A DNA stretch of 32,000 nucleotides from Trichodesmium erythraeum IMS101 (GCF_000014265.1 NC_008312.1:4230001-4262000), one strand, 5' to 3'; counted from the first letter of the stretch, positions 1 through 12,589 are shown. The notes: a model not told the origin generated them from the letters alone. A program made the numbers and translations.

Positions 1-2294
1 AAAATTAAATCTGGCATCAGGCCTTTTTCAATCATTTCTAATGCTTCAATTCCATTATTAGCTTCAGTAATAGCATAATTTTGTAAAGCCAAATTATTTC
101 TAATAACTTGTAAATTAACTGGTTCATCATCTACAATTAAAACTGTAAAATCTCCCATTTCTGCTTCTAAATATTGTAGTTTAACGTCCTTACTTTTTGG
201 TTCAAAATCTGTAACTAATGGTATTGATGGAGATAATGTAACTTGTGGAAAATTAACTACTTGAGTTTTAGAGATTGGAATAGTAAATTTAAACTGAGAA
301 CCCACACCTACTTCTGATAAAACGCAGAGAGAACCTTTGTGTAATTCTACTAACTTTTTAGTAATAGCTAAACCCAAACCAGTACCACCATATTCTCTAG
401 AAGTAGAGCCATTTGCTTGTTCAAATGATTCAAAAATTTGATCTAATTTATCTGATGGAATGCCAATACCTGTATCACTAACAGTAATCTCTAATAAAGA
501 AACGTTATTACTAGAGTTTTCTAGTTGATTTTCTAAGACTTTAGCCGAGACCTCTATTTTACCTGAGTCAGTAAACTTAACTGCATTACCAACTAAATTA
601 TAAAAGATTTGCTGAAGTCGATTTTCATCAGCATCAACAAAAGGTATATCATAACTAATAGAATTAATTATTTGTAAAGGCTTTGTACCAATCATGGAAC
701 TAGAAAGATTAATTACTATCTCTGCTACTTCTCTCACCCCTACTGGTTTTAATTTTAATTCGATATTGCGATGTTTAAGTTTATAAAAATCAAGAATATC
801 GTTAATTAAATTTGATAATCTTTTGCCAGAAAAAATCACTAGATAAAGATTATTTTTAACCTCAGAAGATAATTCTCCTGCTACCCCATCTATTAATGAT
901 TCTGTAATCCCAATAATTCCATTCAAAGGAGTACGAAGTTCGTGAGATGTATTAGCTAAAAATTCGTCTTTTAATTTATCTAAATTTTCTAATTGTTTAT
1001 TCTTAATTGTCAGTAAATTAAAGGAATTTTGTAATTGAAAAGCCATAGAATTAAAAGCTTTAGCAAGTTCCCCTACTTCATCATCACGATTAAGTTCAAT
1101 TTTCTGATTAAATTCTCCTTCAGATAAGGCAGTAGCTACATCTTTTAGTTTTAAAATAGGTTGCACAACCCAACGAGATGTTAAGATACCAATTACTGTT
1201 GCTAAAACTAATGCCAATAGACAAAGTATAATCGTGATTTTAGTTTGTTTATAAATATTATCTAGAAAGTCTATTTCTGGAATTACTATTACTATTAACC
1301 AGTCTAAACCATACTGATCTTGGAAAGGTTTTATATTAAGAAATTGTCGTTGATTATTAATCTTAAATTGCAGATATTTTCCATCATTAATTAATTTATT
1401 TAAGTCAAATTCTGTGCTTAAATATTTGGCTGTAGCTTGAGTCAAATCATTATAACTTTCAATGGCTTGAACTCTCTCAGCTCCGTATGCTTTATTTATC
1501 GTACGAAAAGGCTTTTCTCCTGTAGAAGTTGCCACTAACATTCCCGAACGCTCAAGAATAAAAATTTGTCCAGTTTTACCAATTTCTAGACTCCCTAAAA
1601 AGTCACCAATTTGTGATAGATTAATATTTGTTAATAGTACACCCTGCAATTTTCCCTGGTCATTATAAAAAGCCTTAGATGCGCCAAGATAAGCAGTGAG
1701 ACCAGCAGTATTAGGATAAATTTCACTCCAAGTAGGTTGACCACTAGCTACAGCAGCTTTGTACCAAGGTCGAGTGCGTGGGTCGAATTTAATACTATTT
1801 AATAGTTGGACTCGCTCACCAAATTGATTTGTGGAATAAGTTTCAAAAATATAATTGCTTTCTTGGGTTGAAATTCTCAGATGTAGAGTATCCTGAGTAA
1901 GTCTTTCGGCCCCCAAATTAACTTTATTTTCTAATCCTAATCCTGTAAAACCAAGAACATCAAATATTTGTAGTTGTTGCCAAAAGTAATTTTCTAATTG
2001 AGAAGTATTTTCTAAATCTAATTGACCATTACGAATAGTAGTAGCATTAATTTGATTAACCTGATGGGGAACACGAAGGTAAGCTTCTAAATTTTGTTCA
2101 ACTCTAGCAACCTGTTCATTCAAAAGTTGATTAACTACATCATTAATAGCTCTTTGAGAATTTTCTATAGAAATATACCCTATTAAACCTACTACCCCAA
2201 ATACTTGCACTATAAATGGTAGTATTAAAGTTGTACGGAGGGGAACTTTTCCAGAAATTTGAGCAAATAATCTACTCAGGTATTTTAAAGCCAT
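1..2294 (-). CDS. Hybrid sensor histidine kinase (Cache-like sensor, HAMP, HisKA, HATPase_c, N-terminal part of a receiver domain); 3-prime end lies beyond the window start
   Basis: The reverse strand is open from the ATG at 2294 to the window edge (764 full codons). It is absent from the ORF track because it is truncated. My translation starts MALKYLSRLFAQISGKVPLRTTLILPFIVQVFGVVGLIGY (TM). About 280 aa of extracytoplasmic region follow, then a second TM (ITIILCLLALVLATVIGIL) and a HAMP-like linker. The H-box is FLANTSHELRTPLNGI and the G-boxes are SDTGIGIP and YGGTGLGLAI. The receiver domain begins VLIVDDEPVN...MPDLI at the edge. Confidence 0.85.
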   Translation of the reverse strand, partial: MALKYLSRLFAQISGKVPLRTTLILPFIVQVFGVVGLIGYISIENSQRAINDVVNQLLNEQVARVEQNLEAYLRVPHQVNQINATTIRNGQLDLENTSQLENYFWQQLQIFDVLGFTGLGLENKVNLGAERLTQDTLHLRISTQESNYIFETYSTNQFGERVQLLNSIKFDPRTRPWYKAAVASGQPTWSEIYPNTAGLTAYLGASKAFYNDQGKLQGVLLTNINLSQIGDFLGSLEIGKTGQIFILERSGMLVATSTGEKPFRTINKAYGAERVQAIESYNDLTQATAKYLSTEFDLNKLINDGKYLQFKINNQRQFLNIKPFQDQYGLDWLIVIVIPEIDFLDNIYKQTKITIILCLLALVLATVIGILTSRWVVQPILKLKDVATALSEGEFNQKIELNRDDEVGELAKAFNSMAFQLQNSFNLLTIKNKQLENLDKLKDEFLANTSHELRTPLNGIIGITESLIDGVAGELSSEVKNNLYLVIFSGKRLSNLINDILDFYKLKHRNIELKLKPVGVREVAEIVINLSSSMIGTKPLQIINSISYDIPFVDADENRLQQIFYNLVGNAVKFTDSGKIEVSAKVLENQLENSSNNVSLLEITVSDTGIGIPSDKLDQIFESFEQANGSTSREYGGTGLGLAITKKLVELHKGSLCVLSEVGVGSQFKFTIPISKTQVVNFPQVTLSPSIPLVTDFEPKSKDVKLQYLEAEMGDFTVLIVDDEPVNLQVIRNNLALQNYAITEANNGIEALEMIEKGLMPDLI

Positions 2295-3581
2295 AATGTT
2301 TATTTGAGAGTGGAATTACCTAGCAAACATATTTCCTCTAGCAAGGATATAATAGAGTTTGAGGATACTTCTTTGTGGGCAATATAACAACTCAGTCAAA
2401 TATATTATAACTCTTCAGTATGATGTATAATATATAGTTGATTGGCATAAGACTTTTTTTACTTTTTACTGCAATGAATCAAAGGTTTCCGTACAATAAT
2501 ATCAATATCCAACTACCCAGTCTAAAATATCTTTTTTTTAGTTATGTACGGCTTTCCATATTCAAATATGACATTGGTGCATAGAAAGATGAAATTAACC
2601 TGTCAAAAGCTATGGATAGATTAAAGCATTCAAGTACCTAAGAGTAAAAGCTTCATTAGTCAACCTACCCTTTATTCCCAAGGCTATTTTATTTTAGGTT
2701 TTAGATACAGAAAAAATAGTTTAACTTTGTCTGAAAACCTTTAATCGTCAACTGTTTTTTTTATGAAATTATGTATATAAATATTTTAATTGAAAAAAAC
2801 TTAAAAAAGTAAATTATCCACCAAAATATTAGTGTAAAATACATGGATAATGGTTAATATTAGTAATAACTATTTCTAGCCTTGTGTGAATAGATATCAC
2901 ATAAATATATTGGATATTTCACCTTAGCTAATCTATCAAGTATTATAGAAGCTTTTAATATTTATCCAAGATTACCATTATATTCAACAACCAGGGCAGA
3001 AAAAAAAGAGTGCTTTTTATTGACTTACTTCATCAATTCAATGAATAGTCAAGATAATTATCTAAGGATGATTCATTACAAAAGTGGGTGTATATTAATG
3101 GTAAAAATTTACGGAATATTGTTACTAAATTGAACGATAATCAGCAAAATTTTGTTAAAATAATTTCATCGTTTAATCGCAATAGTGGAATAATTTTAAA
3201 TTTAAAATTATTGGGATCATAATTGTTAATAAATTAACCAAGCTCAATAATTTATAAGATCTTCCTCACTAAAGAATACTATTTTTACCATAAGTAATTT
3301 ACATTGCTATCAAAAAAACTACTGAATTAATTACAATTACAAATAAAAATAATGATTATTTAATTGCTTTAAAAAGAATAAACCTACTTTATCTCGACAG
3401 ATAGAACAGATCAGTAATAATCGCAATAAATTAATTTTTTCATGAAAAAGATCATAGTCATGATTGAAATACAGAAAGAATAATTTCAGTTTTTTAACCT
3501 GCATTAAGCATGGCTAATTTTTGGAAAAATGTTCAAAATTTTATTAAAGTATAAAGACTTTAATTTAGAGGTAAAATATTA

Positions 3582-4694
3582 TAGCAATCCTAAGTAGGTT
3601 GCGGCAAAATTTCATACTGAAAAAGTTTTGGGAAATTGAATATTTGACCATCCGCAAAAAACTTAAATAGCCACTTAACTACTTTAAAAGAACTGCAAAG
3701 ATGATAAAAAGTAATACTGAAATTTTTGGTTTGTAACCAAATATCTTCAACAGGATTTTGCTCCGGAGCATTGGGAGCAAATCTTGTACAATTTATCAAC
3801 AATTCTTCTTCTGATAAGTATTGATTAATTGTCATTAAATATTCTCGAAATTCTTGAGAGTTATGGTAAGTTGCCCCATCCCAAAATATTGCCAATTTGT
3901 TGCCCGGTCTTTGCTTCTGCAAATATTTAATAAATTCAATAGTATTTTTAGTATTTCCACTCTCATATTCTTGCACAAGAAATTCCTTGGTTTTATAGTC
4001 TAAAGCTCCATAATAAGTCTGTCTTTCTTTTTCATTTTTAATTGCAATTTCTATTCTTTCATCTGTTTTTCCCCAAGCATAACCTAATATGTCTCCCCAT
4101 AGAAGATGACATTCATCAATCATAAACACTGTAAGCTTTCCAGTTTCTATTTCTGGTTGCCATTTAGCTAAAAATTCCTCTATTTCTTTTCTTTTAACTT
4201 CTACTAATTCATCATTTTTAGCAGGATTCTTTTTTTGAGTTTTTTTCCAACTTATGCCCGCTTCTTTAAACAAGTTATAGTAACTTTGATTAGACTCAAA
4301 AACCACATCATATTGCTCCTGTAAGTAGTTTTTTAAATCTGATAACCTAAGATAATCTTGTGCTCTCAACCACTCAATTGTTTTCTCTTTTTCGACCGTT
4401 TTTAAGTAACCTTGTCTCCCTTGATACTGAAGCCTTAAACTTTCTACACCATGAAATAATGCTTGGTTTTTCCATTCACTAATAAAACTGTGAGAAACAT
4501 TTAATAATTCTTTGACTTCATGGTAGGATTTTCCTGACAAGGTCATTTTTACGGCCAAGGCCCTTTTAATTTCTTTAGACTCTTTTGTTTGATTAATAAA
4601 ATCATTTAGTTTATCTATAATATTCATTTTTTGTCTTTTTCTTAGATCTGTTATTCTTACTATTATATCTGTTGCGACCAATATGGGATTGCTA
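3582..4694 (-). mobile_element. IS630-family insertion sequence, apparently intact, with imperfect terminal inverted repeats and TA target duplication
   Basis: The left end is ta|tagcaatcctaagtaggttgcggc (3580-3605). The right end is gttgcgaccaatatgggattgcta|ta (4671-4696). The outer 9-11 nt are perfect inverted repeats (tagcaatcc / ggattgcta) with partial matching further in. A TA dinucleotide flanks both ends, as expected for IS630/Tc1-mariner elements. The element carries a single transposase ORF. Confidence 0.85.
3590..4627 (-). CDS. IS630-family DDE transposase (HTH plus DDE_3-type catalytic domain)
   Basis: This is the track ORF 3590..4681. The likely real start is the ATG at 4627 (MNIIDKLNDF...), because the upstream TTG start lies inside the terminal repeat. 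It has an N-terminal HTH-like region (SYHEVKELLNVSHSFISEWK). The catalytic region contains FMIDECHLLWGD, IFWDGATYHNS and NAPEQNPVEDIW (DDE triad context). The stop codon lies inside the left inverted repeat. Confidence 0.85.
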   Translation of the reverse strand: MNIIDKLNDFINQTKESKEIKRALAVKMTLSGKSYHEVKELLNVSHSFISEWKNQALFHGVESLRLQYQGRQGYLKTVEKEKTIEWLRAQDYLRLSDLKNYLQEQYDVVFESNQSYYNLFKEAGISWKKTQKKNPAKNDELVEVKRKEIEEFLAKWQPEIETGKLTVFMIDECHLLWGDILGYAWGKTDERIEIAIKNEKERQTYYGALDYKTKEFLVQEYESGNTKNTIEFIKYLQKQRPGNKLAIFWDGATYHNSQEFREYLMTINQYLSEEELLINCTRFAPNAPEQNPVEDIWLQTKNFSITFYHLCSSFKVVKWLFKFFADGQIFNFPKLFQYEILPQPT

Positions 4695-7354: not shown

Positions 7355-7607
7355 ATTTTTTTCACCCTAATTTAAATTGACAAAAAGTTAAGATAGTTTT
7401 GTAGTCTCACTGAACTATTAATATATTTTCCATGTTAGCTATTTGAGATATTCTCCGGCCTTTAGTTAGAGAGATTCTCCTGAAATGAGGATTCTTGGTT
7501 CATTGATTCTACTTAAATTAAACATCCTGAAATACTTAATTCATAGATAATCATTTTACCAAGCATTTTATCTGTTTCAAAAGCCTATAGATTTATGTTC
7601 TACGGTA

Positions 7608-7714
7608 AAGTTTAAAACTAAAAGAAACTTGGTTTTTTGGTACTTATTGTTTAAAGTTTTTGTATACAGAAACTAACAAAAATACAAAACCCCATAACTT
7701 TAGTTTTTAAGGTG
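7608..7714. repeat. Short MITE-like element sharing termini with a second copy at 27158-27245
   Basis: gtttaaaactaaaagaaactt (7610-7630) matches gtttaaaactaaaagagactt (27160-27180) at 20/21. tagtttttaagg (7701-7712) is identical to 27232-27243 and is an imperfect inverted copy of the first arm (10/12). The internal sequences differ. Confidence 0.3.
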
Positions 7715-7848
7715 AAGTGCCCTATTAATTAGATAACTACAGGCTCTTAGAGTAGTTGGGTATTTAATACCTTCCTGCTCTACCTACTCATAACACAAAT
7801 GATAATAACACAAAATGGCCTAGCTTACTTAATGGCGAAACTTTAAAA

Positions 7849-8832
7849 CTAATTTTTTGGTAAATAGCTACCTAAAAAGGCTTCTACTTCAGATTCAGTA
7901 GGTTGAGCTGTAACTGCTCCTAATTTAGTAGTAGTTATTGCCCCCACAGCACTAGCATAAGTAACAATTTGTTTTGCTACTCCTGGTTGCTGTAAACGGC
8001 GAATACCATATTGGCGCAATTGATGTATAAAACCTGCTACAAAGCCATCTCCTGCACCGGTAGTATCTACAGCATCTACTGAAAAAGCAGGTACTTTTCC
8101 TTCATTTTCTGATAAGTAATAAGCGCAGCCTTGATTACCGGCAGTTAATAGTAAACCTTCTACTGAATCTAATCTATAAGTAATTGCAGCAGGGTCGGTA
8201 CAGTCAAATAGCCACTCAGCTTCTTCTAGAGAAAGCTTGACAAAATCGGATCTTTTTAAGATCGACTGTATCAGTGGTTTAGCATCATCAGGATTAGGCC
8301 AAAATGAAGGACGCCAATTGACATCTACCATAATCTTAAGATGATACCGATCAGCCAAATCAAGGGCCTGATAAATAGCTTGTCTAGTTTGAGGATAAGC
8401 TAGTCCTAGAGTTCCTAAGATTAAAAATTCACCATTCAAAAACAAAGATTCTGGCAGAAGTTCAGCTTTGAGGTAGGTATCGGCAAACTCTGTTGTTGTC
8501 TGTTTTCCAAAACCAGCAAATTCACGCTCCCCAGTTTTAGAACGTAAAACATATACTTTTCGTGTTTGTGCATAAGGATGTCCCTGAATACCTGAAGTAT
8601 CTACCCCTATTTCCTGTAAAATTTGTACTAGTTTTTTACCTTCTGTATCCTCACCCACAGAACTAATGAGGGCAGCAGTTGTACCCAAATTGACTAAACC
8701 ACAGGCAACGTTAGCAGGTGCGCCACCAGGGTAGGTTGTCCAAGACTCTACTTTATTAAAAGTTTTCTCAGCTTGGTCCGCTAGACAATCAAATAAAATT
8801 TCACCAAGGCAAATAGCATAAGGATGGGTCAT
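7849..8832 (-). CDS. PfkB-family carbohydrate kinase, probable fructokinase
   Basis: This is the track ORF 7849..8913. The likely start is the ATG at 8832 (MTHPYAICLGEILFDCLADQ), since the 27-aa upstream extension is low-complexity. Motifs are GGAPANVACGL near the N-terminus and DTTGAGDGFVAGF (PfkB signature 2) near the C-terminus. Confidence 0.8.
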   Translation of the reverse strand: MTHPYAICLGEILFDCLADQAEKTFNKVESWTTYPGGAPANVACGLVNLGTTAALISSVGEDTEGKKLVQILQEIGVDTSGIQGHPYAQTRKVYVLRSKTGEREFAGFGKQTTTEFADTYLKAELLPESLFLNGEFLILGTLGLAYPQTRQAIYQALDLADRYHLKIMVDVNWRPSFWPNPDDAKPLIQSILKRSDFVKLSLEEAEWLFDCTDPAAITYRLDSVEGLLLTAGNQGCAYYLSENEGKVPAFSVDAVDTTGAGDGFVAGFIHQLRQYGIRRLQQPGVAKQIVTYASAVGAITTTKLGAVTAQPTESEVEAFLGSYLPKN

Positions 8833-9073
8833 ATTGATTTGAGTCTTGTAAAAATATAAATCGGTAATAAAAAATTTAAAATCACTAATGATCTTGATGG
8901 TGATCAAAATCAAAAATTTATTGATATGTAAATGACAAAAAGAAATTTATTCCATTCTCTGGAGACTTTCCTGTCGTTTTAGCACTTAAATAGATTTCAT
9001 TAACGTGATTTTTGTCAAGATATCCCTAAAATTATAATTAAGCAAATATACTTTCTGTATATAGGAAAAATTT

Positions 9074-9337
9074 ATGACTCGTTGCAAGTCTAAAACCCAT
9101 ACGTCTCTTTCTGAGAGGGAGCTACAAGTTATAGAACTAGTAGCAGATGGGTTGACCAATGAAAAAATAGCCTCTCGGCTAGAAATTAGCAAGCGAACAG
9201 TAGACAACCATATCAGTAATATTCTCAGTAAGACTTCAACTCATAATCGAGTAGAACTTGTACGCTGGGCTTTACAGTGGGGTAAAGTATGCTTCAATAA
9301 TATTAATTGTTGTAATGTCAAACAGCTAACTGAATAG
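9074..9337 (+). CDS. Small stand-alone LuxR/GerE-type HTH regulator, PedR-like
   Basis: 87-aa ORF consisting almost only of a GerE domain (LSERELQVIELVADGLTNEKIASRLEISKRTVDNHISNILSKTSTHNRVELVRWALQWG). A Cys-rich tail follows (C73, C79, C80). Its size and layout match the small cyanobacterial LuxR regulator PedR (Ssl0564). Confidence 0.75.
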   Translation: MTRCKSKTHTSLSERELQVIELVADGLTNEKIASRLEISKRTVDNHISNILSKTSTHNRVELVRWALQWGKVCFNNINCCNVKQLTE

Positions 9338-9495
9338 TTGGTATATCTTAATAGTTAAGAGAATAAAGAATAGTATTACAATCTACCTCACTATCATCAA
9401 AAGTTATTTAAATAGCTATTATTAGGTCATTTTACCATACTAATAATACTAATTCTGGTAAGATATTTAGGGATTAGACCTAATATAGTTCTTCA

Positions 9496-9789
9496 ATGGG
9501 AAATACTATAATGGAGACTGGGAAACACAAACAACAACGTTATCAAATTAGCTGTAAGGGACTTTCACTAGCAGTCTATAAAGAACTAGAGGCTCATTTA
9601 CGCCAAGTAGGCAAAGTACAAGTGGGTTTATTTTCTCCTCCTTCCTCAGAGCTGTTTGACTACAACAAAAGCCAAGTAGGAGGATTATGGTTAGAGTATG
9701 CTGAAGATGCTGAGGATGCTATTCGTGAAAAAGTTAACCAAATATTATCTTATTATGAGGAAATCTTTGGTTATTGGGAAGAAAATTAG
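9496..9789 (+). CDS. Hypothetical acidic 97-aa protein
   Basis: Clean ORF in a region of protein-like composition. I recognised no motif. The C-terminal half is strongly acidic (WLEYAEDAEDAIREKVNQILSYYEEIFGYWEEN). An alternative start is at 9511 (METGK). Confidence 0.55.
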   Translation: MGNTIMETGKHKQQRYQISCKGLSLAVYKELEAHLRQVGKVQVGLFSPPSSELFDYNKSQVGGLWLEYAEDAEDAIREKVNQILSYYEEIFGYWEEN

Positions 9790-9992: not shown

Positions 9993-11480
9993 ATGCTTAC
10001 CATAAAAAATTCTACTATGCCACTAATACCATCTTATTTAATACCTCTAATAATTATTTTAGTAATCATACCATCTTTTGTAGCTATCTTACTCAGGATG
10101 GTACTTTATTTTGACTTAGCAAATCAGGAAGATAAAGTTAAGAGACTTATTAGTCAGCAGTTAGTAAATAATAAGCCTAAATTTATCAAGTATTTAGAGG
10201 AGAGATTTGCTGATGCTAGTAGTAAACTAGAGCAAGTTAATACAGGAGCATTAATAGACCAAGTTTATAGTAGACAGCGATTATTAGGATTAGTTTCTTT
10301 AAGGCAAGTTGAATATTTTTGTAGAATTTTACCGAATCTACTTGTATCTTTTGGATTATTAGGTACTTTTGCTGGTATTACCATTAATTTAACATCTCTG
10401 AGCCAAACAATTAGTGATACTAATGCTACGGATGTTAGTAGTTTACTGAAGGAATTAGAAGTACCTTTAAAAGGTATGGGAATTGCTTTCGTTACGAGTT
10501 TAGTAGCAATATTATTTAGTGCTCTAGTTACATTAATTAATTTAATTTTTAATGCTAGTTTGGCAAAAACTAGACTAATCAGTTTACTAGAAGATTATTT
10601 AGATAATATTTACTTACAAACTATCCAAGGTCAAACTCAGCTTGACAAAGTAGTAAAAACTATTGCCTATTCTTTTGAAGAATTTTTAACAACATTTGGT
10701 CAAACAGTTAGAGTAGGAGTAGAGTCAGCTCTACAAGATAAAATTCAAGAAATTTATAATGCTAATGCTACTGCAAATAAATTAGCAGAACAGACTTTTG
10801 TAAGATTAGGAGAAGCTGCTGCTACTATTGCTAACAGTTCTCAGGATTTTCAGATAGCTTCCGATAAATTTCTAGAGGTCGCACAAATATTTGAACATAG
10901 TCAGTTTCCCCAAAGTTTAGCTAATTCTACAACGGAATTAGCTAATATTCAAAGTAATTTTTCTCAGTCAACTTCAACTCTAGCTGCTGCTGTTCAAGCA
11001 ATTGAAATAGTAGTAATTGAACTACAAGGATATAGTAAAAGACTAGCTAGGTTTGGAGAACAAATTAGTAATAATAATCAAACTTCATTAAGAATATTAG
11101 AATCTCATCAAAGTAATCAAAAATCTTTTTCTGAGGTGATTAGGCAACTACAGGAAGCATCACAAAGTTTCCATTTAGCTGTCGGTACTTTGGATACTTT
11201 ACAAAGAAGAGTAGTATCTAAAGCGGATAATCTAGAGGAAGTACAAATTCAAATCAAAATGTTAGTAGATACCTTCAATAATTCTACAGATGGTATTGGT
11301 GAGGGGATTAAATATTTAGGAGATCAAATAAATCAAAGTATAAGCACCCAAGCTAATCTTAATAATTCTCATTTAAGTGTTATTGCTACAAATTTACAGA
11401 AATATATTAATGAAATGAATGCAACTAAAAATAAAATTGATAGTTTGACACAAATTATTGATGGCTTAGCTAATCAATAG
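9993..11480 (+). CDS. MotA/ExbB/TolQ-family proton-channel-like membrane protein with long C-terminal helical tail (ZorA-like architecture)
   Basis: 495-aa ORF with three hydrophobic segments. These are LIPLIIILVIIPSFVAILLRMVLYF, LPNLLVSFGLLGTFAGITINL and GMGIAFVTSLVAILFSALVTLINLIF. The FGLLGTFAG and AFVTS..A...S motif pair matches the conserved last two TM helices of MotA/ExbB channels. About 300 C-terminal residues follow. They are rich in Q/N/S/A/L/I with almost no Pro or Gly, consistent with an extended helix or coiled coil. Confidence 0.65.
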   Translation: MLTIKNSTMPLIPSYLIPLIIILVIIPSFVAILLRMVLYFDLANQEDKVKRLISQQLVNNKPKFIKYLEERFADASSKLEQVNTGALIDQVYSRQRLLGLVSLRQVEYFCRILPNLLVSFGLLGTFAGITINLTSLSQTISDTNATDVSSLLKELEVPLKGMGIAFVTSLVAILFSALVTLINLIFNASLAKTRLISLLEDYLDNIYLQTIQGQTQLDKVVKTIAYSFEEFLTTFGQTVRVGVESALQDKIQEIYNANATANKLAEQTFVRLGEAAATIANSSQDFQIASDKFLEVAQIFEHSQFPQSLANSTTELANIQSNFSQSTSTLAAAVQAIEIVVIELQGYSKRLARFGEQISNNNQTSLRILESHQSNQKSFSEVIRQLQEASQSFHLAVGTLDTLQRRVVSKADNLEEVQIQIKMLVDTFNNSTDGIGEGIKYLGDQINQSISTQANLNNSHLSVIATNLQKYINEMNATKNKIDSLTQIIDGLANQ

Positions 11481-11743
11481 CTAAGTCAGTTATCAGTTAT
11501 TATTAGTAATCAAAATCTTATAAAAAACTAGCTATATTTTAATTCAAAACAACAATATTCTGTGATTTGTGAGATAGTTTCAAGTTTTAGGAAAGAGGTA
11601 AAAAAAAGTTCAATTATCACACTTAATTTCTGATAGTTATATTTCCTGACAACTTTATCCTGAATAATAGTTTTTTTTAGTGTCTATACTATACTTCTTA
11701 TTCCCTATTCTTTCTTTGTTATATTTTAATTTCTAATTTAATT

Positions 11744-12589
11744 ATGCGTCATCGTTCACGAATTATTGAGGATAACCGGGAGCTAGAAATTTGGCCAGCT
11801 TTTACAGATTTAATGTCTAATTCTTTTATGATATTAAGTTTGTTATTACTCTTAGCTATTATTAAATCTCTGTTCATAGAATCAATTTCTGATGCCAACC
11901 AAAATCGCGCTATGAAACTTCAACAAAAGGTTAATAATTTACAAAGTCAACTGCAACAAAAGAGAAATGAAGTGATAGGTTTACAAGGAACAGTTGGAAA
12001 TTTACAAAACCAAGTTACACAACTTCAAGGTAAATTAACTACTTCTAAAAAAGAGTTAGAGCAAAAATCAAATAGGGTGACAGAGTTAGTAATAGAAATC
12101 GACAAGTTAAATTCTCCACCTGTGATAGTAATTAGAGATTTAAAATCTCGGAGATTTGAGTCAGGAAGTGCCAAAATATCAGGAAAATTAAAAGGTTTTA
12201 TAGAGTCAGATTTAGTTAAGCAAATTGAGAATTTTGCTAAAGAATACCAGGGTTATATTGTTGAAGTAATTGGTCATACTGATGGTCAAATAAATCAAGG
12301 AAGTGTTAGTAATTTAGATACCCAGTTAGAACAGGTTACTAAGGGTAATGGATCTGTTAGTATTTTGGCAGCAGGATCGAATGCAGATTTAGGTTTAATG
12401 CGAGCTTTAGCAGTAGTACAAAAACTCCAAAACAATTCTCGCCTGCAAGAGTTGGGTTTACAATTTAGAGCTTATTCTGCTGCACAATTATATAATTCTA
12501 CTGGAGATTATGCTGAGGTAAATAGAAATCCTGATCAGAGTCGGCGAAGGATAGAAGTTCGTTTTACTCCTAGTGCAGTGGAGAGATAG
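11744..12589 (+). CDS. MotB/ZorB-like protein: N-terminal TM helix with conserved Asp, coiled-coil linker, C-terminal OmpA-like peptidoglycan-binding domain
   Basis: 281-aa ORF. WPAFTDLMSNSFMILSLLLLLAI is the MotB/ExbD-type plug-TM motif, with Asp22 at the position of the proton-carrying Asp. Residues about 50-122 are heptad-like (LQQKVNNLQSQLQQKRNEVIGLQGTVGNLQNQVTQLQGKL). The OmpA-like motifs are RFESGSAKIS, VIGHTDGQ, LGLMRALAV and SRRRIEVRF. Confidence 0.75.
   Translation: MRHRSRIIEDNRELEIWPAFTDLMSNSFMILSLLLLLAIIKSLFIESISDANQNRAMKLQQKVNNLQSQLQQKRNEVIGLQGTVGNLQNQVTQLQGKLTTSKKELEQKSNRVTELVIEIDKLNSPPVIVIRDLKSRRFESGSAKISGKLKGFIESDLVKQIENFAKEYQGYIVEVIGHTDGQINQGSVSNLDTQLEQVTKGNGSVSILAAGSNADLGLMRALAVVQKLQNNSRLQELGLQFRAYSAAQLYNSTGDYAEVNRNPDQSRRRIEVRFTPSAVER

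Follow-up and report, generated by a model that had tools for sequence, protein, structure and literature searches.

The window analysed here, a stretch of 32,000 nucleotides from Trichodesmium erythraeum IMS101 (NC_008312.1:4230001-4262000), contains two neighboring genes, designated A and B, which we interpret, with somewhat better than even confidence, as encoding the two subunits of a ZorAB-type, peptidoglycan (PG)-anchored inner-membrane motor that probably serves the tubulin-like protein FtsZl1 and a von Willebrand factor A (vWA) protein in trans. Judged by sequence similarity, the pair belongs to the 'B7' plus COG1360 family catalogued beside FtsZl1 (Ava_1849/1850, Tery_1706/1705). The family itself, catalogued in 2010 and uncharacterised, was already known, and the window pair is a derived paralogue within it; what is new is the recognition of this FtsZl1-associated family as ZorAB-like and of a whole clade with a detached, re-proportioned version. 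The two genes and the region between them are as follows.

9993..11480, + strand: gene A (open reading frame (ORF) A), 495 aa; predicted ZorA-like A subunit of a 5:2-type ion-driven motor, family 'B7' (Makarova & Koonin 2010)
11481..11743, no strand: A–B spacer, AT-rich, 263 bp
11744..12589, + strand: gene B (ORF B), 281 aa; predicted ZorB/MotB-like B subunit, COG1360 family

A previous reading of this stretch, made from the sequence alone (the sequence-only reading), had placed both ORFs at these positions on the + strand with 263 bp between them, and both were recovered. The 495-aa ORF that it gave for gene A was also found, but because most homologues begin at Met9, the true start is probably position 10017, with a product of 487 aa. 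An exact look-up of the 495-aa product returned no match, and the protein is probably on record with the 487-aa start.

Profile searches indicated ZorA as the specific relative of A. In both PADLOC and NCBIfam, A matched ZorA models only, and in both over the transmembrane (TM) core only; the best PADLOC model was ZorA1 (2.3e-10), and the best NCBIfam model reached 8.5e-9 with 34.3 bits against a cut-off of 750, the other NCBIfam ZorA models scoring 22-32 bits against cut-offs of 100-500. Thus the proposed relationship to ZorA was borne out in kind, but at scores far under the curated cut-offs. A 12-member A profile run against all PDB sequences recovered E. coli ZorA (8qyd, 1e-8, profile positions 65-213), the rest being generic coiled coils, and no MotA, PomA, ExbB, or TolQ at E <= 10. 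A structural search with Foldseek, using a model of the A core, ranked ZorA first (8qyd_A, 7.2e-3; 8vvn_D, 1.2e-2; probability 1.00), followed by ExbB and TolQ, with PomA low; nearly all Foldseek hits fell in these four families. In addition, a homologue 93% identical to A carries a weak precomputed match to Pfam PF28082 'ZorA-like_t1'. The Pfam MotA_ExbB family (PF01618) did not match A at E <= 1, and other Pfam matches to A were noise; the assignment of A to the MotA/ExbB superfamily was therefore upheld by the ZorA profiles, PDB sequences, and Foldseek, but not by that Pfam family.

For B, the corresponding profile search against PDB sequences retrieved ZorB (8vvn_B, 4.3e-6), PomB (6.1e-6), MotB (6e-3), and E. 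coli ZorB (8qyd_F, 9.5e-3). PADLOC ZorB models matched B at 1.1e-3, and the NCBIfam MotB family at 2.4e-8, far under its cut-off. ExbD and TolR gave no match to B in Pfam, NCBIfam, or the PDB profile search. The Pfam OmpA family matched at 8.8e-5 with 23.2 bits, under its gathering score of 27.2, together with many coiled-coil false matches; the OmpA-like domain read from the sequence thus lacks a match above the gathering score but retains the PG-binding motifs, which are invariant among homologues (see below). Taken together, these searches place A and B as a ZorAB-like member of the 5:2 motor superfamily (MotA/ExbB/TolQ/ZorA), though not as a Zorya family member under the curated cut-offs. 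With ZorA as the only specific PDB match for A and ZorB as the best for B, the architecture agrees with the ZorA/ZorB type that had been proposed, rather than with MotAB or ExbBD.

The structural features of A were examined by hydropathy, alignment of diverse homologues, and structure prediction with AlphaFold2 (AF2). Full-length prediction was poor (predicted local distance difference test score (pLDDT) 52.8, with the tail below 50), and the core was therefore predicted separately. A is divided into two regions.

10029..10565, + strand: membrane and membrane-proximal core of A (hydropathy, AF2 model of aa 1-245, invariant columns)
10578..11477, + strand: cytoplasmic tail of A, aa 196-495 (composition, AF2/DSSP, conserved columns)

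Hydropathy showed three TM segments at approximately aa 13-40, 112-134, and 157-191. The two MotA/ExbB-type motifs previously noted, FGLLGTFAG and AFVTSLVAILFSALV, are present with their key residues invariant: TM2 carries GLLGTFAG with the invariant T125, TM3 carries AFVTSL with the invariant S169, and G121, G124, F126, G128, A165, and F166 are also invariant in alignments of 12 to 19 diverse homologues. The core alone (aa 1-245) was modeled at pLDDT 78.4, with helices at 63-78 and 84-94, a hairpin at 95-102, and helices at 103-142 and 148-185, so that the cytoplasmic helices and β-hairpin (aa 63-102) lie between TM1 and TM2 in the model. This resembles the layout of ZorA, which has three TM helices, with H1-H3 and a β-hairpin on the cytoplasmic side (PMC11946911).

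The tail comprises approximately 300 residues containing 0.3% Pro and 4% Gly. The long helix expected from this composition was predicted by AF2 and DSSP over aa 188-493, with breaks at 302-304, 320-325, 410-413, and 454-458; pLDDT was below 50, a low value of the kind expected when an oligomeric coiled coil is modeled as a monomer. In an extended coiled-coil form, the tail would measure approximately 40 nm. Its base carries a conserved EDYLDN (aa 200-205), a SQFP kink is conserved at aa 303-306, and the invariant columns are F231, L232, F235, L264, F286, F293, S303, F305, P306, L309, L316, Q320, F323, and S326.

B consists of a single TM helix, a linker, and a PG-binding domain, as listed below.

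11792..11896, + strand: TM helix of B with WPAFTDLM; aa 19-51 by hydropathy, the single TM segment
11897..12115, + strand: periplasmic heptad-rich linker of B, aa 52-124, where the coiled-coil family matches fall
12116..12586, + strand: OmpA-like PG-binding domain of B, aa 125-281 (invariant motifs, profile alignment)

In the alignment of 16 homologues, W17, F20, T21, D22, and M24 are invariant, which confirmed the conservation of Asp22 (11807-11809), the presumed ion-binding residue. Three motifs of the PG domain are invariant in the same homologues: GHTD (177-180), SNADLGLMR (212-220), and RRRIE (267-271). HMMER alignment paired SNADLGLMRA (212-221) of B with SNWDLSAQRA of PomB, and RRRIE with NRRVEI/NRRIDI of PomB/ZorB; an insertion of approximately 25 aa in B separates GHTD from SNADLGLMRA. 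In ZorB, PG binding depends on the matching H/T, L, and R residues (PMC11890865). The linker is long in copies detached from FtsZl1 and short or absent in FtsZl1-linked copies, the alignment being gapped there in the Nostocales, Gloeocapsopsis (locus L077), Planktothrix (L082), and B2 rows.

Among characterised systems, type I Zorya provided the best sequence and fold matches for both proteins. Type I ZorA (8QYD, E. coli; 8VVN, Shewanella, a type I ZorAB from the Zorya modularity paper) shares with A three TM helices, membrane-proximal helices with a β-hairpin, and a long helical C-terminal tail, and type I ZorB, like B, combines a single TM helix bearing a conserved Asp with an OmpA-like domain for PG binding. 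The E. coli ZorA tail is approximately 500 aa (70 nm) as compared with approximately 300 aa in A, and B, unlike type I ZorB, has a coiled-coil stalk of approximately 70 aa. Unlike in Zorya, no ZorC/ZorD, ZorE, or ZorF/G adjoins the window pair, which is chromosomal and vertically inherited and lies in a housekeeping context. MotAB and PomAB share with B the W..F.D TM motif and the OmpA-like domain, and both they and the window pair are presumed PG-anchored ion-driven rotary units; however, MotA has four TM helices and A three, and no torque-generating loop was identified in A. Cyanobacteria, as is well established, have no flagella. A flagellar stator was rejected on the grounds of the three-TM A, the absence of a MotA or PomA sequence match, and the absence of flagellar genes from the window. 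ExbBD and TolQR resemble A in their three-TM fold, TolQ and ExbB giving the highest TM-scores (0.45-0.57), but A has a long tail and neither a sequence-level match to them nor a TonB or TolA partner. ExbD and TolR lack the OmpA-like domain, whereas that of B matches PomB, MotB, and ZorB, and an ExbBD/TolQR assignment was rejected for this reason and for the lack of an ExbD/TolR match.

We then considered the family to which the pair belongs. More than 745 homologues of A were found in a large protein collection, all named ones being cyanobacterial. Exhaustive search of 1.84 billion proteins with the N-terminal 235 residues of A returned 505 cluster representatives at E <= 1e-3, and the most distant named relatives (Thermostichales, Thermosynechococcaceae, and one Halanaerobiales firmicute) matched ZorA models only, weakly. 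When one genome per species was scanned, 229 loci were confirmed, and 80 of these were retained for locus counts. The scan patterns, EDYLDN[IV]Y and GTF[ILV]GIT[IL]N, miss the A2-type copies described below, so that genomes with two pairs are not countable from it. B lies next to A in 76 of the 80 loci; in the other four, the contig stops directly or shortly after A, that of L002 continuing for only approximately 600 bp downstream.

Comparison of synteny for a third or fourth gene identified a recurrent partnership. In 34 of the 80 loci, a Tubulin_2 protein of approximately 1084 aa (PF13809, 4.9e-107), FtsZl1, is encoded directly upstream of A, preceded in turn by a protein of approximately 380 aa named VWA domain-containing protein at NCBI. 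These FtsZl1-linked loci belong to Nostocales, Microcoleus, Kamptonema, Aerosakkonema, Chroococcidiopsis, and Gloeocapsopsis. The vWA protein showed only a weak match to VWA_2 (0.089), with no other support in Pfam, PDB, or NCBIfam; an FHA-like C-terminus considered for it was dropped, no support having been found. Across the 80 loci, the recurrent neighbors were only vWA, Tubulin_2, a small ORF (s97), a LuxR-type gene, and housekeeping genes.

This arrangement corresponds to the FtsZl1 system catalogued by Makarova & Koonin 2010 (PMC2875224), in which Ava_1847 is vWA, Ava_1848 FtsZl1, Ava_1849 'B7', and Ava_1850 COG1360. The authors called B7 simply a 'membrane-associated protein' and drew no tie to MotA or ZorA (PMC2875224). 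The supplement of that study also lists the vWA-FtsZl1-B7-COG1360 cluster for Cyanothece 8802, Nodularia, and Microcystis, as well as Deinococcus FtsZl1 operons with genes annotated as a MotA/TolQ/ExbB membrane protein and an OmpA family protein. By annotation, Deinococcus DR_0537 (MotA/TolQ/ExbB, 411 aa) and DR_0536 (OmpA family) can be likened to a MotA-like/OmpA-like pair with FtsZl1 outside cyanobacteria; that operon differs in its shorter A counterpart and in its accessory genes, which encode a leucine-rich repeat protein and a Ser/Thr kinase. FtsZl1-adjacent A copies showed 43-53% identity to window A over the aligned part (E ~1e-120 to 1e-140), those of Nostocales and Microcoleus being 44-47% identical, with the A-then-B order and s97 in common. 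Unlike the B7/COG1360 clusters, the window pair is not beside vWA or FtsZl1, and its A is shorter and its B longer.

The missing partners are present elsewhere in the species. A tblastn search for FtsZl1 and vWA found no match in the window, whereas the supplement to PMC2875224 lists for T. erythraeum IMS101 Tery_1709 (vWA), Tery_1707 (FtsZl1), Tery_1706 (B7, 563 aa), and Tery_1705 (COG1360), the vWA and FtsZl1 proteins being intact at 379 and 1090 aa. The same cluster of vWA, Tubulin_2, a 563-aa A2, and a 214-aa B2 was found in T. erythraeum 21-75 (contig L083), a strain for which a partial, 406-aa record of A matches window A exactly over the recorded part. In that draft (8829-13557 of L083), vWA and FtsZl1 are each split into two ORFs, by frameshift, assembly error, or decay. 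A2 was 38% identical to window A (5e-97), and B2 59% identical to window B over the PG domain (2.5e-60). Because T. erythraeum has the full vWA-FtsZl1-A2-B2 cluster elsewhere in its genome, the window pair is a second, derived copy of the proposed motor. The description of the pair as an orphan without a recognisable partner accordingly applied to the window only. The sequence-only reading had also placed it among Nostocales, but T. erythraeum IMS101 belongs to the order Oscillatoriales. The vWA-FtsZl1-A-B cluster was also found in an Okeania-like metagenome contig (L084) and in Planktothrix agardhii (L082). In L084, a gene for a 728-aa NACHT-domain protein (7409-9595, - strand) is inserted between A2 and B2 on the opposite strand.

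In a neighbor-joining tree of A, the copies without upstream FtsZl1 formed one clade nested among the FtsZl1-linked Oscillatoriales copies, comprising Trichodesmium, Okeania, Dapis, Hormoscilla, Roseofilum, Limnospira/Arthrospira, Lyngbya, Limnoraphis, and Moorena; the A2 copies of Trichodesmium and Okeania formed a long separate branch. The detached copies differ in their proportions (medians).

A length: detached 486 aa; FtsZl1-linked 548 aa
B length: detached 275 aa; FtsZl1-linked 219 aa
Asp motif to PG domain: detached ~100 aa; FtsZl1-linked ~38 aa

The A–B gap ranges from 14 to 1746 bp in the detached clade, as compared with a median of 46 bp in FtsZl1-linked loci. The 263-bp spacer, which had been read as a departure from typical operons, is thus correct in size and is best regarded as a trait of the lineage. 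A promoter and terminator scan of the spacer detected no terminator-like site on the + strand and promoter-like matches at chance level only. Spacers are much expanded in Trichodesmium, Okeania, and Dapis (L001-L018), up to the maximum above, as fits genomes whose intergenic regions are long and AT-rich. Two further arrangements fit a split system: Hormoscilla has a vWA gene 6.6 kb downstream of the A-B pair, and Arthrospira platensis has vWA-FtsZl1 without an adjacent B7, another A. platensis strain carrying a detached pair (L030).

These observations can be combined into a mechanism based on homology to ZorAB. Five A subunits, each with three TM helices, would surround two B TM helices carrying Asp22, and ion flow past Asp22, driven by the proton motive force (PMF), would turn the A ring relative to B. 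B would be held to PG by the OmpA-like domain at the end of its periplasmic stalk, and the five A tails may bundle into a cytoplasmic rod of approximately 40 nm that passes a signal or torque inward. The window pair would work with FtsZl1/vWA in trans, coupling the state of the envelope to a cytoplasmic polymer, and the final output would be either membrane/envelope remodeling or anti-phage action. As established parts of this explanation we count the ZorAB homology of both subunits, the conserved Asp, TM2 Thr, TM3 Ser, and PG motifs, the obligate A-B pairing, the family-level linkage to FtsZl1 and vWA, and the full cluster elsewhere in the species.

The genes flanking the pair in the window were surveyed for its context, and two conserved genes lie upstream of A.

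9074..9337, + strand: 87-aa GerE/LuxR-type helix-turn-helix (HTH) gene (Pfam GerE, 2.1e-21; HTH domain only)
9496..9789, + strand: small ORF s97, 97 aa with a core of ~80 aa; conserved

The GerE/LuxR gene lies immediately before s97, an arrangement found in 24 of 46 detached loci, in the Trichodesmium, Okeania, Hormoscilla, and Roseofilum lineages, and in none of the 34 FtsZl1-linked loci, and its product may be a regulator of the A-B pair. The small ORF s97 had no Pfam, NCBIfam, or PADLOC match but contains 18 invariant columns in an alignment of 12 sequences, and a homologue of it precedes vWA-FtsZl1-A-B in Nostocales (42% identity, 5.7e-18). It was present in 36 of the 80 loci: 28 of the 46 detached loci have it ahead of the pair, and 8 of the 34 linked loci have it ahead of the whole vWA-FtsZl1-A-B cluster. 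Because s97 is common to both, the window locus may represent the ancestral position of the cluster, from which vWA and FtsZl1 were removed.

The remaining neighbors in the window (PfkB kinase, shikimate-kinase-like, CYTH, HisIE, HemL, CobK, a TPR protein, and DUF520) agree with the housekeeping setting, free of flanking helicase or nuclease genes, that had been noted at the outset. GC content in the window is low (~0.26-0.42). A DDE_3/HTH_33 transposase gene (3590-4681, - strand), approximately 5 kb away, was the sole mobile-element gene seen in a scan that covered 13 of 18 ORFs of at least 120 aa. Searches of 72,556 plasmids and 50,697 phage records returned no homologue of A, vWA and FtsZl1 had no PADLOC match, and the identities of A track cyanobacterial relationships in the genome scan and neighbor-joining tree. 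Together with the housekeeping setting, these features argue against a typical mobile defence island.

Several points weigh against a ZorAB-type motor serving FtsZl1/vWA in trans. The identity of A to ZorA is only approximately 15%; Foldseek gave no E-value under 1e-3 and TM-scores of 0.3-0.57 overall, making the fold evidence supportive, not decisive. The 5:2 stoichiometry, ion flow, PG binding, and tail bundling are carried over from homologues, and action in trans with FtsZl1 is likewise deduced. The changed geometry of the detached clade, with its shorter A and longer B, might just as well reflect a change of partner or an independent function. The tree of A was built by a simple distance method, was rooted at the midpoint, and carries no support values. 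A detached pair (L035) is also present in Lyngbya sp. PCC 8106, which does not figure in the 2010 FtsZl1 list (PMC2875224); should this genome truly lack FtsZl1, the pair can occur in its absence. Finally, we found no paper mentioning Tery_1705-1707, alr2043, or Ava_1849 and no experiment for any member of the family.

The possible minimal Zorya envisaged in the sequence-only reading did not hold as stated, with 34 bits for A against curated ZorA cut-offs of 100-750, ZorB models matching B only at 1e-3, and no ZorC/D/E-like helicase or nuclease gene nearby. In a wider form, it is an unlikely alternative: a minimal or novel Zorya-type anti-phage system that senses phage envelope damage, with its effector elsewhere, possibly FtsZl1/vWA in place of ZorC/D/E. 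The closest characterised relatives, ZorA and ZorB, are indeed defence motors, and the features on which Zorya defence depends, a long tail and PG binding (PMC11946911, PMC11890865), have predicted counterparts in A and B. Furthermore, systems of tubulin, vWA, and GTPase proteins in Firmicutes and Actinobacteria have been interpreted as conflict systems enriched in multicellular prokaryotes (PMC7159879), and a NACHT gene is inserted in the FtsZl1 cluster of the Okeania-like contig. However, the neighbors of the pair are housekeeping genes, and vWA and FtsZl1 are not recognised by PADLOC. The family resides on the chromosome in conserved synteny and follows cyanobacterial phylogeny across at least 229 species genomes, and its absence from the plasmid and phage records is unlike patchy mobile defence islands.

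That the pair is instead an envelope motor with a housekeeping role of its own, no longer dependent on FtsZl1, tethering or energising thick PG and outer layers or acting in the gliding of filamentous Oscillatoriales, with the long B stalk as an adaptation to a wide periplasm, we consider quite unlikely. The monophyly of the detached clade with its own geometry (a shorter tail and a B linker approximately 60 aa longer), the housekeeping context, the intact pair at 80-86% identity across Trichodesmium, Okeania, and Dapis, and the possible lack of FtsZl1 in Lyngbya PCC 8106 are all compatible with such a role. Nevertheless, no third conserved partner gene was found besides s97 and LuxR, and the invariant tail columns are common to the FtsZl1-linked copies, which suggests the same binding partner. 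Trichodesmium and Arthrospira, moreover, keep vWA and FtsZl1, while only vWA was seen in Okeania SIO3B3 and Hormoscilla. The second full cluster in the same genome and the unusually long A–B spacer would also fit a redundant duplicate of Tery_1706/1705 drifting toward loss as a non-functional paralogue. This is highly improbable: both ORFs are intact and keep all invariant functional residues, orthologues at 44-86% identity persist throughout an entire clade of genera, and long spacers are general in Trichodesmium and Okeania loci. A pseudogene was rejected on the same intactness, retained residues, and conservation.

The preferred explanation, a ZorAB-type motor working with FtsZl1/vWA, can be extended to the family as a whole only tentatively, and we hold the extension at less than even confidence. 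In cyanobacteria, and perhaps Deinococcus, the tail of a ZorAB-type rotary motor would act on FtsZl1 and vWA rather than on nucleases, as either a Zorya type with a cytoskeletal effector or a PMF-powered machine for membrane/cytoskeleton remodeling; the Trichodesmium-Lyngbya-Moorena clade would carry a detached version with a shorter tail and long stalk, acting in trans or with a new partner. We found no literature linking ZorA with tubulin-like proteins, and nothing relevant on CeaR or coiled-coil proteins of Anabaena. To date, the one role known for ZorAB is that of a sensor motor signaling to nucleases in Zorya phage defence. The present data show that many cyanobacterial genomes contain, as a conserved component inherited with the chromosome, a ZorAB-like motor family; its genes usually neighbor those for a tubulin-like GTPase and a vWA protein, both without an assigned function since 2010, and one clade has uncoupled and re-proportioned the motor. 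If the link is functional, it would provide a concrete mechanism for the FtsZl1 system, an envelope-anchored, PMF-driven input to a cytoplasmic polymer, and would widen the known outputs of 5:2 motors. The window pair alone is a more modest result, being a paralogue of a catalogued, uncharacterised family. Trichodesmium is a globally important nitrogen fixer, and an envelope, defence, or membrane-remodeling machine in this genus would be of ecological interest.

An additional gene was observed near the small ORF in other genomes. In Nostocales and Moorena, the small ORF is preceded by a Pro-rich lipoprotein-like gene encoding approximately 290 aa with a conserved C-terminal domain and no Pfam match; examples are 1926-2747 (+ strand) in locus L056 and 3689-4684 (+ strand) in locus L039, with 12 other loci showing the same gene.

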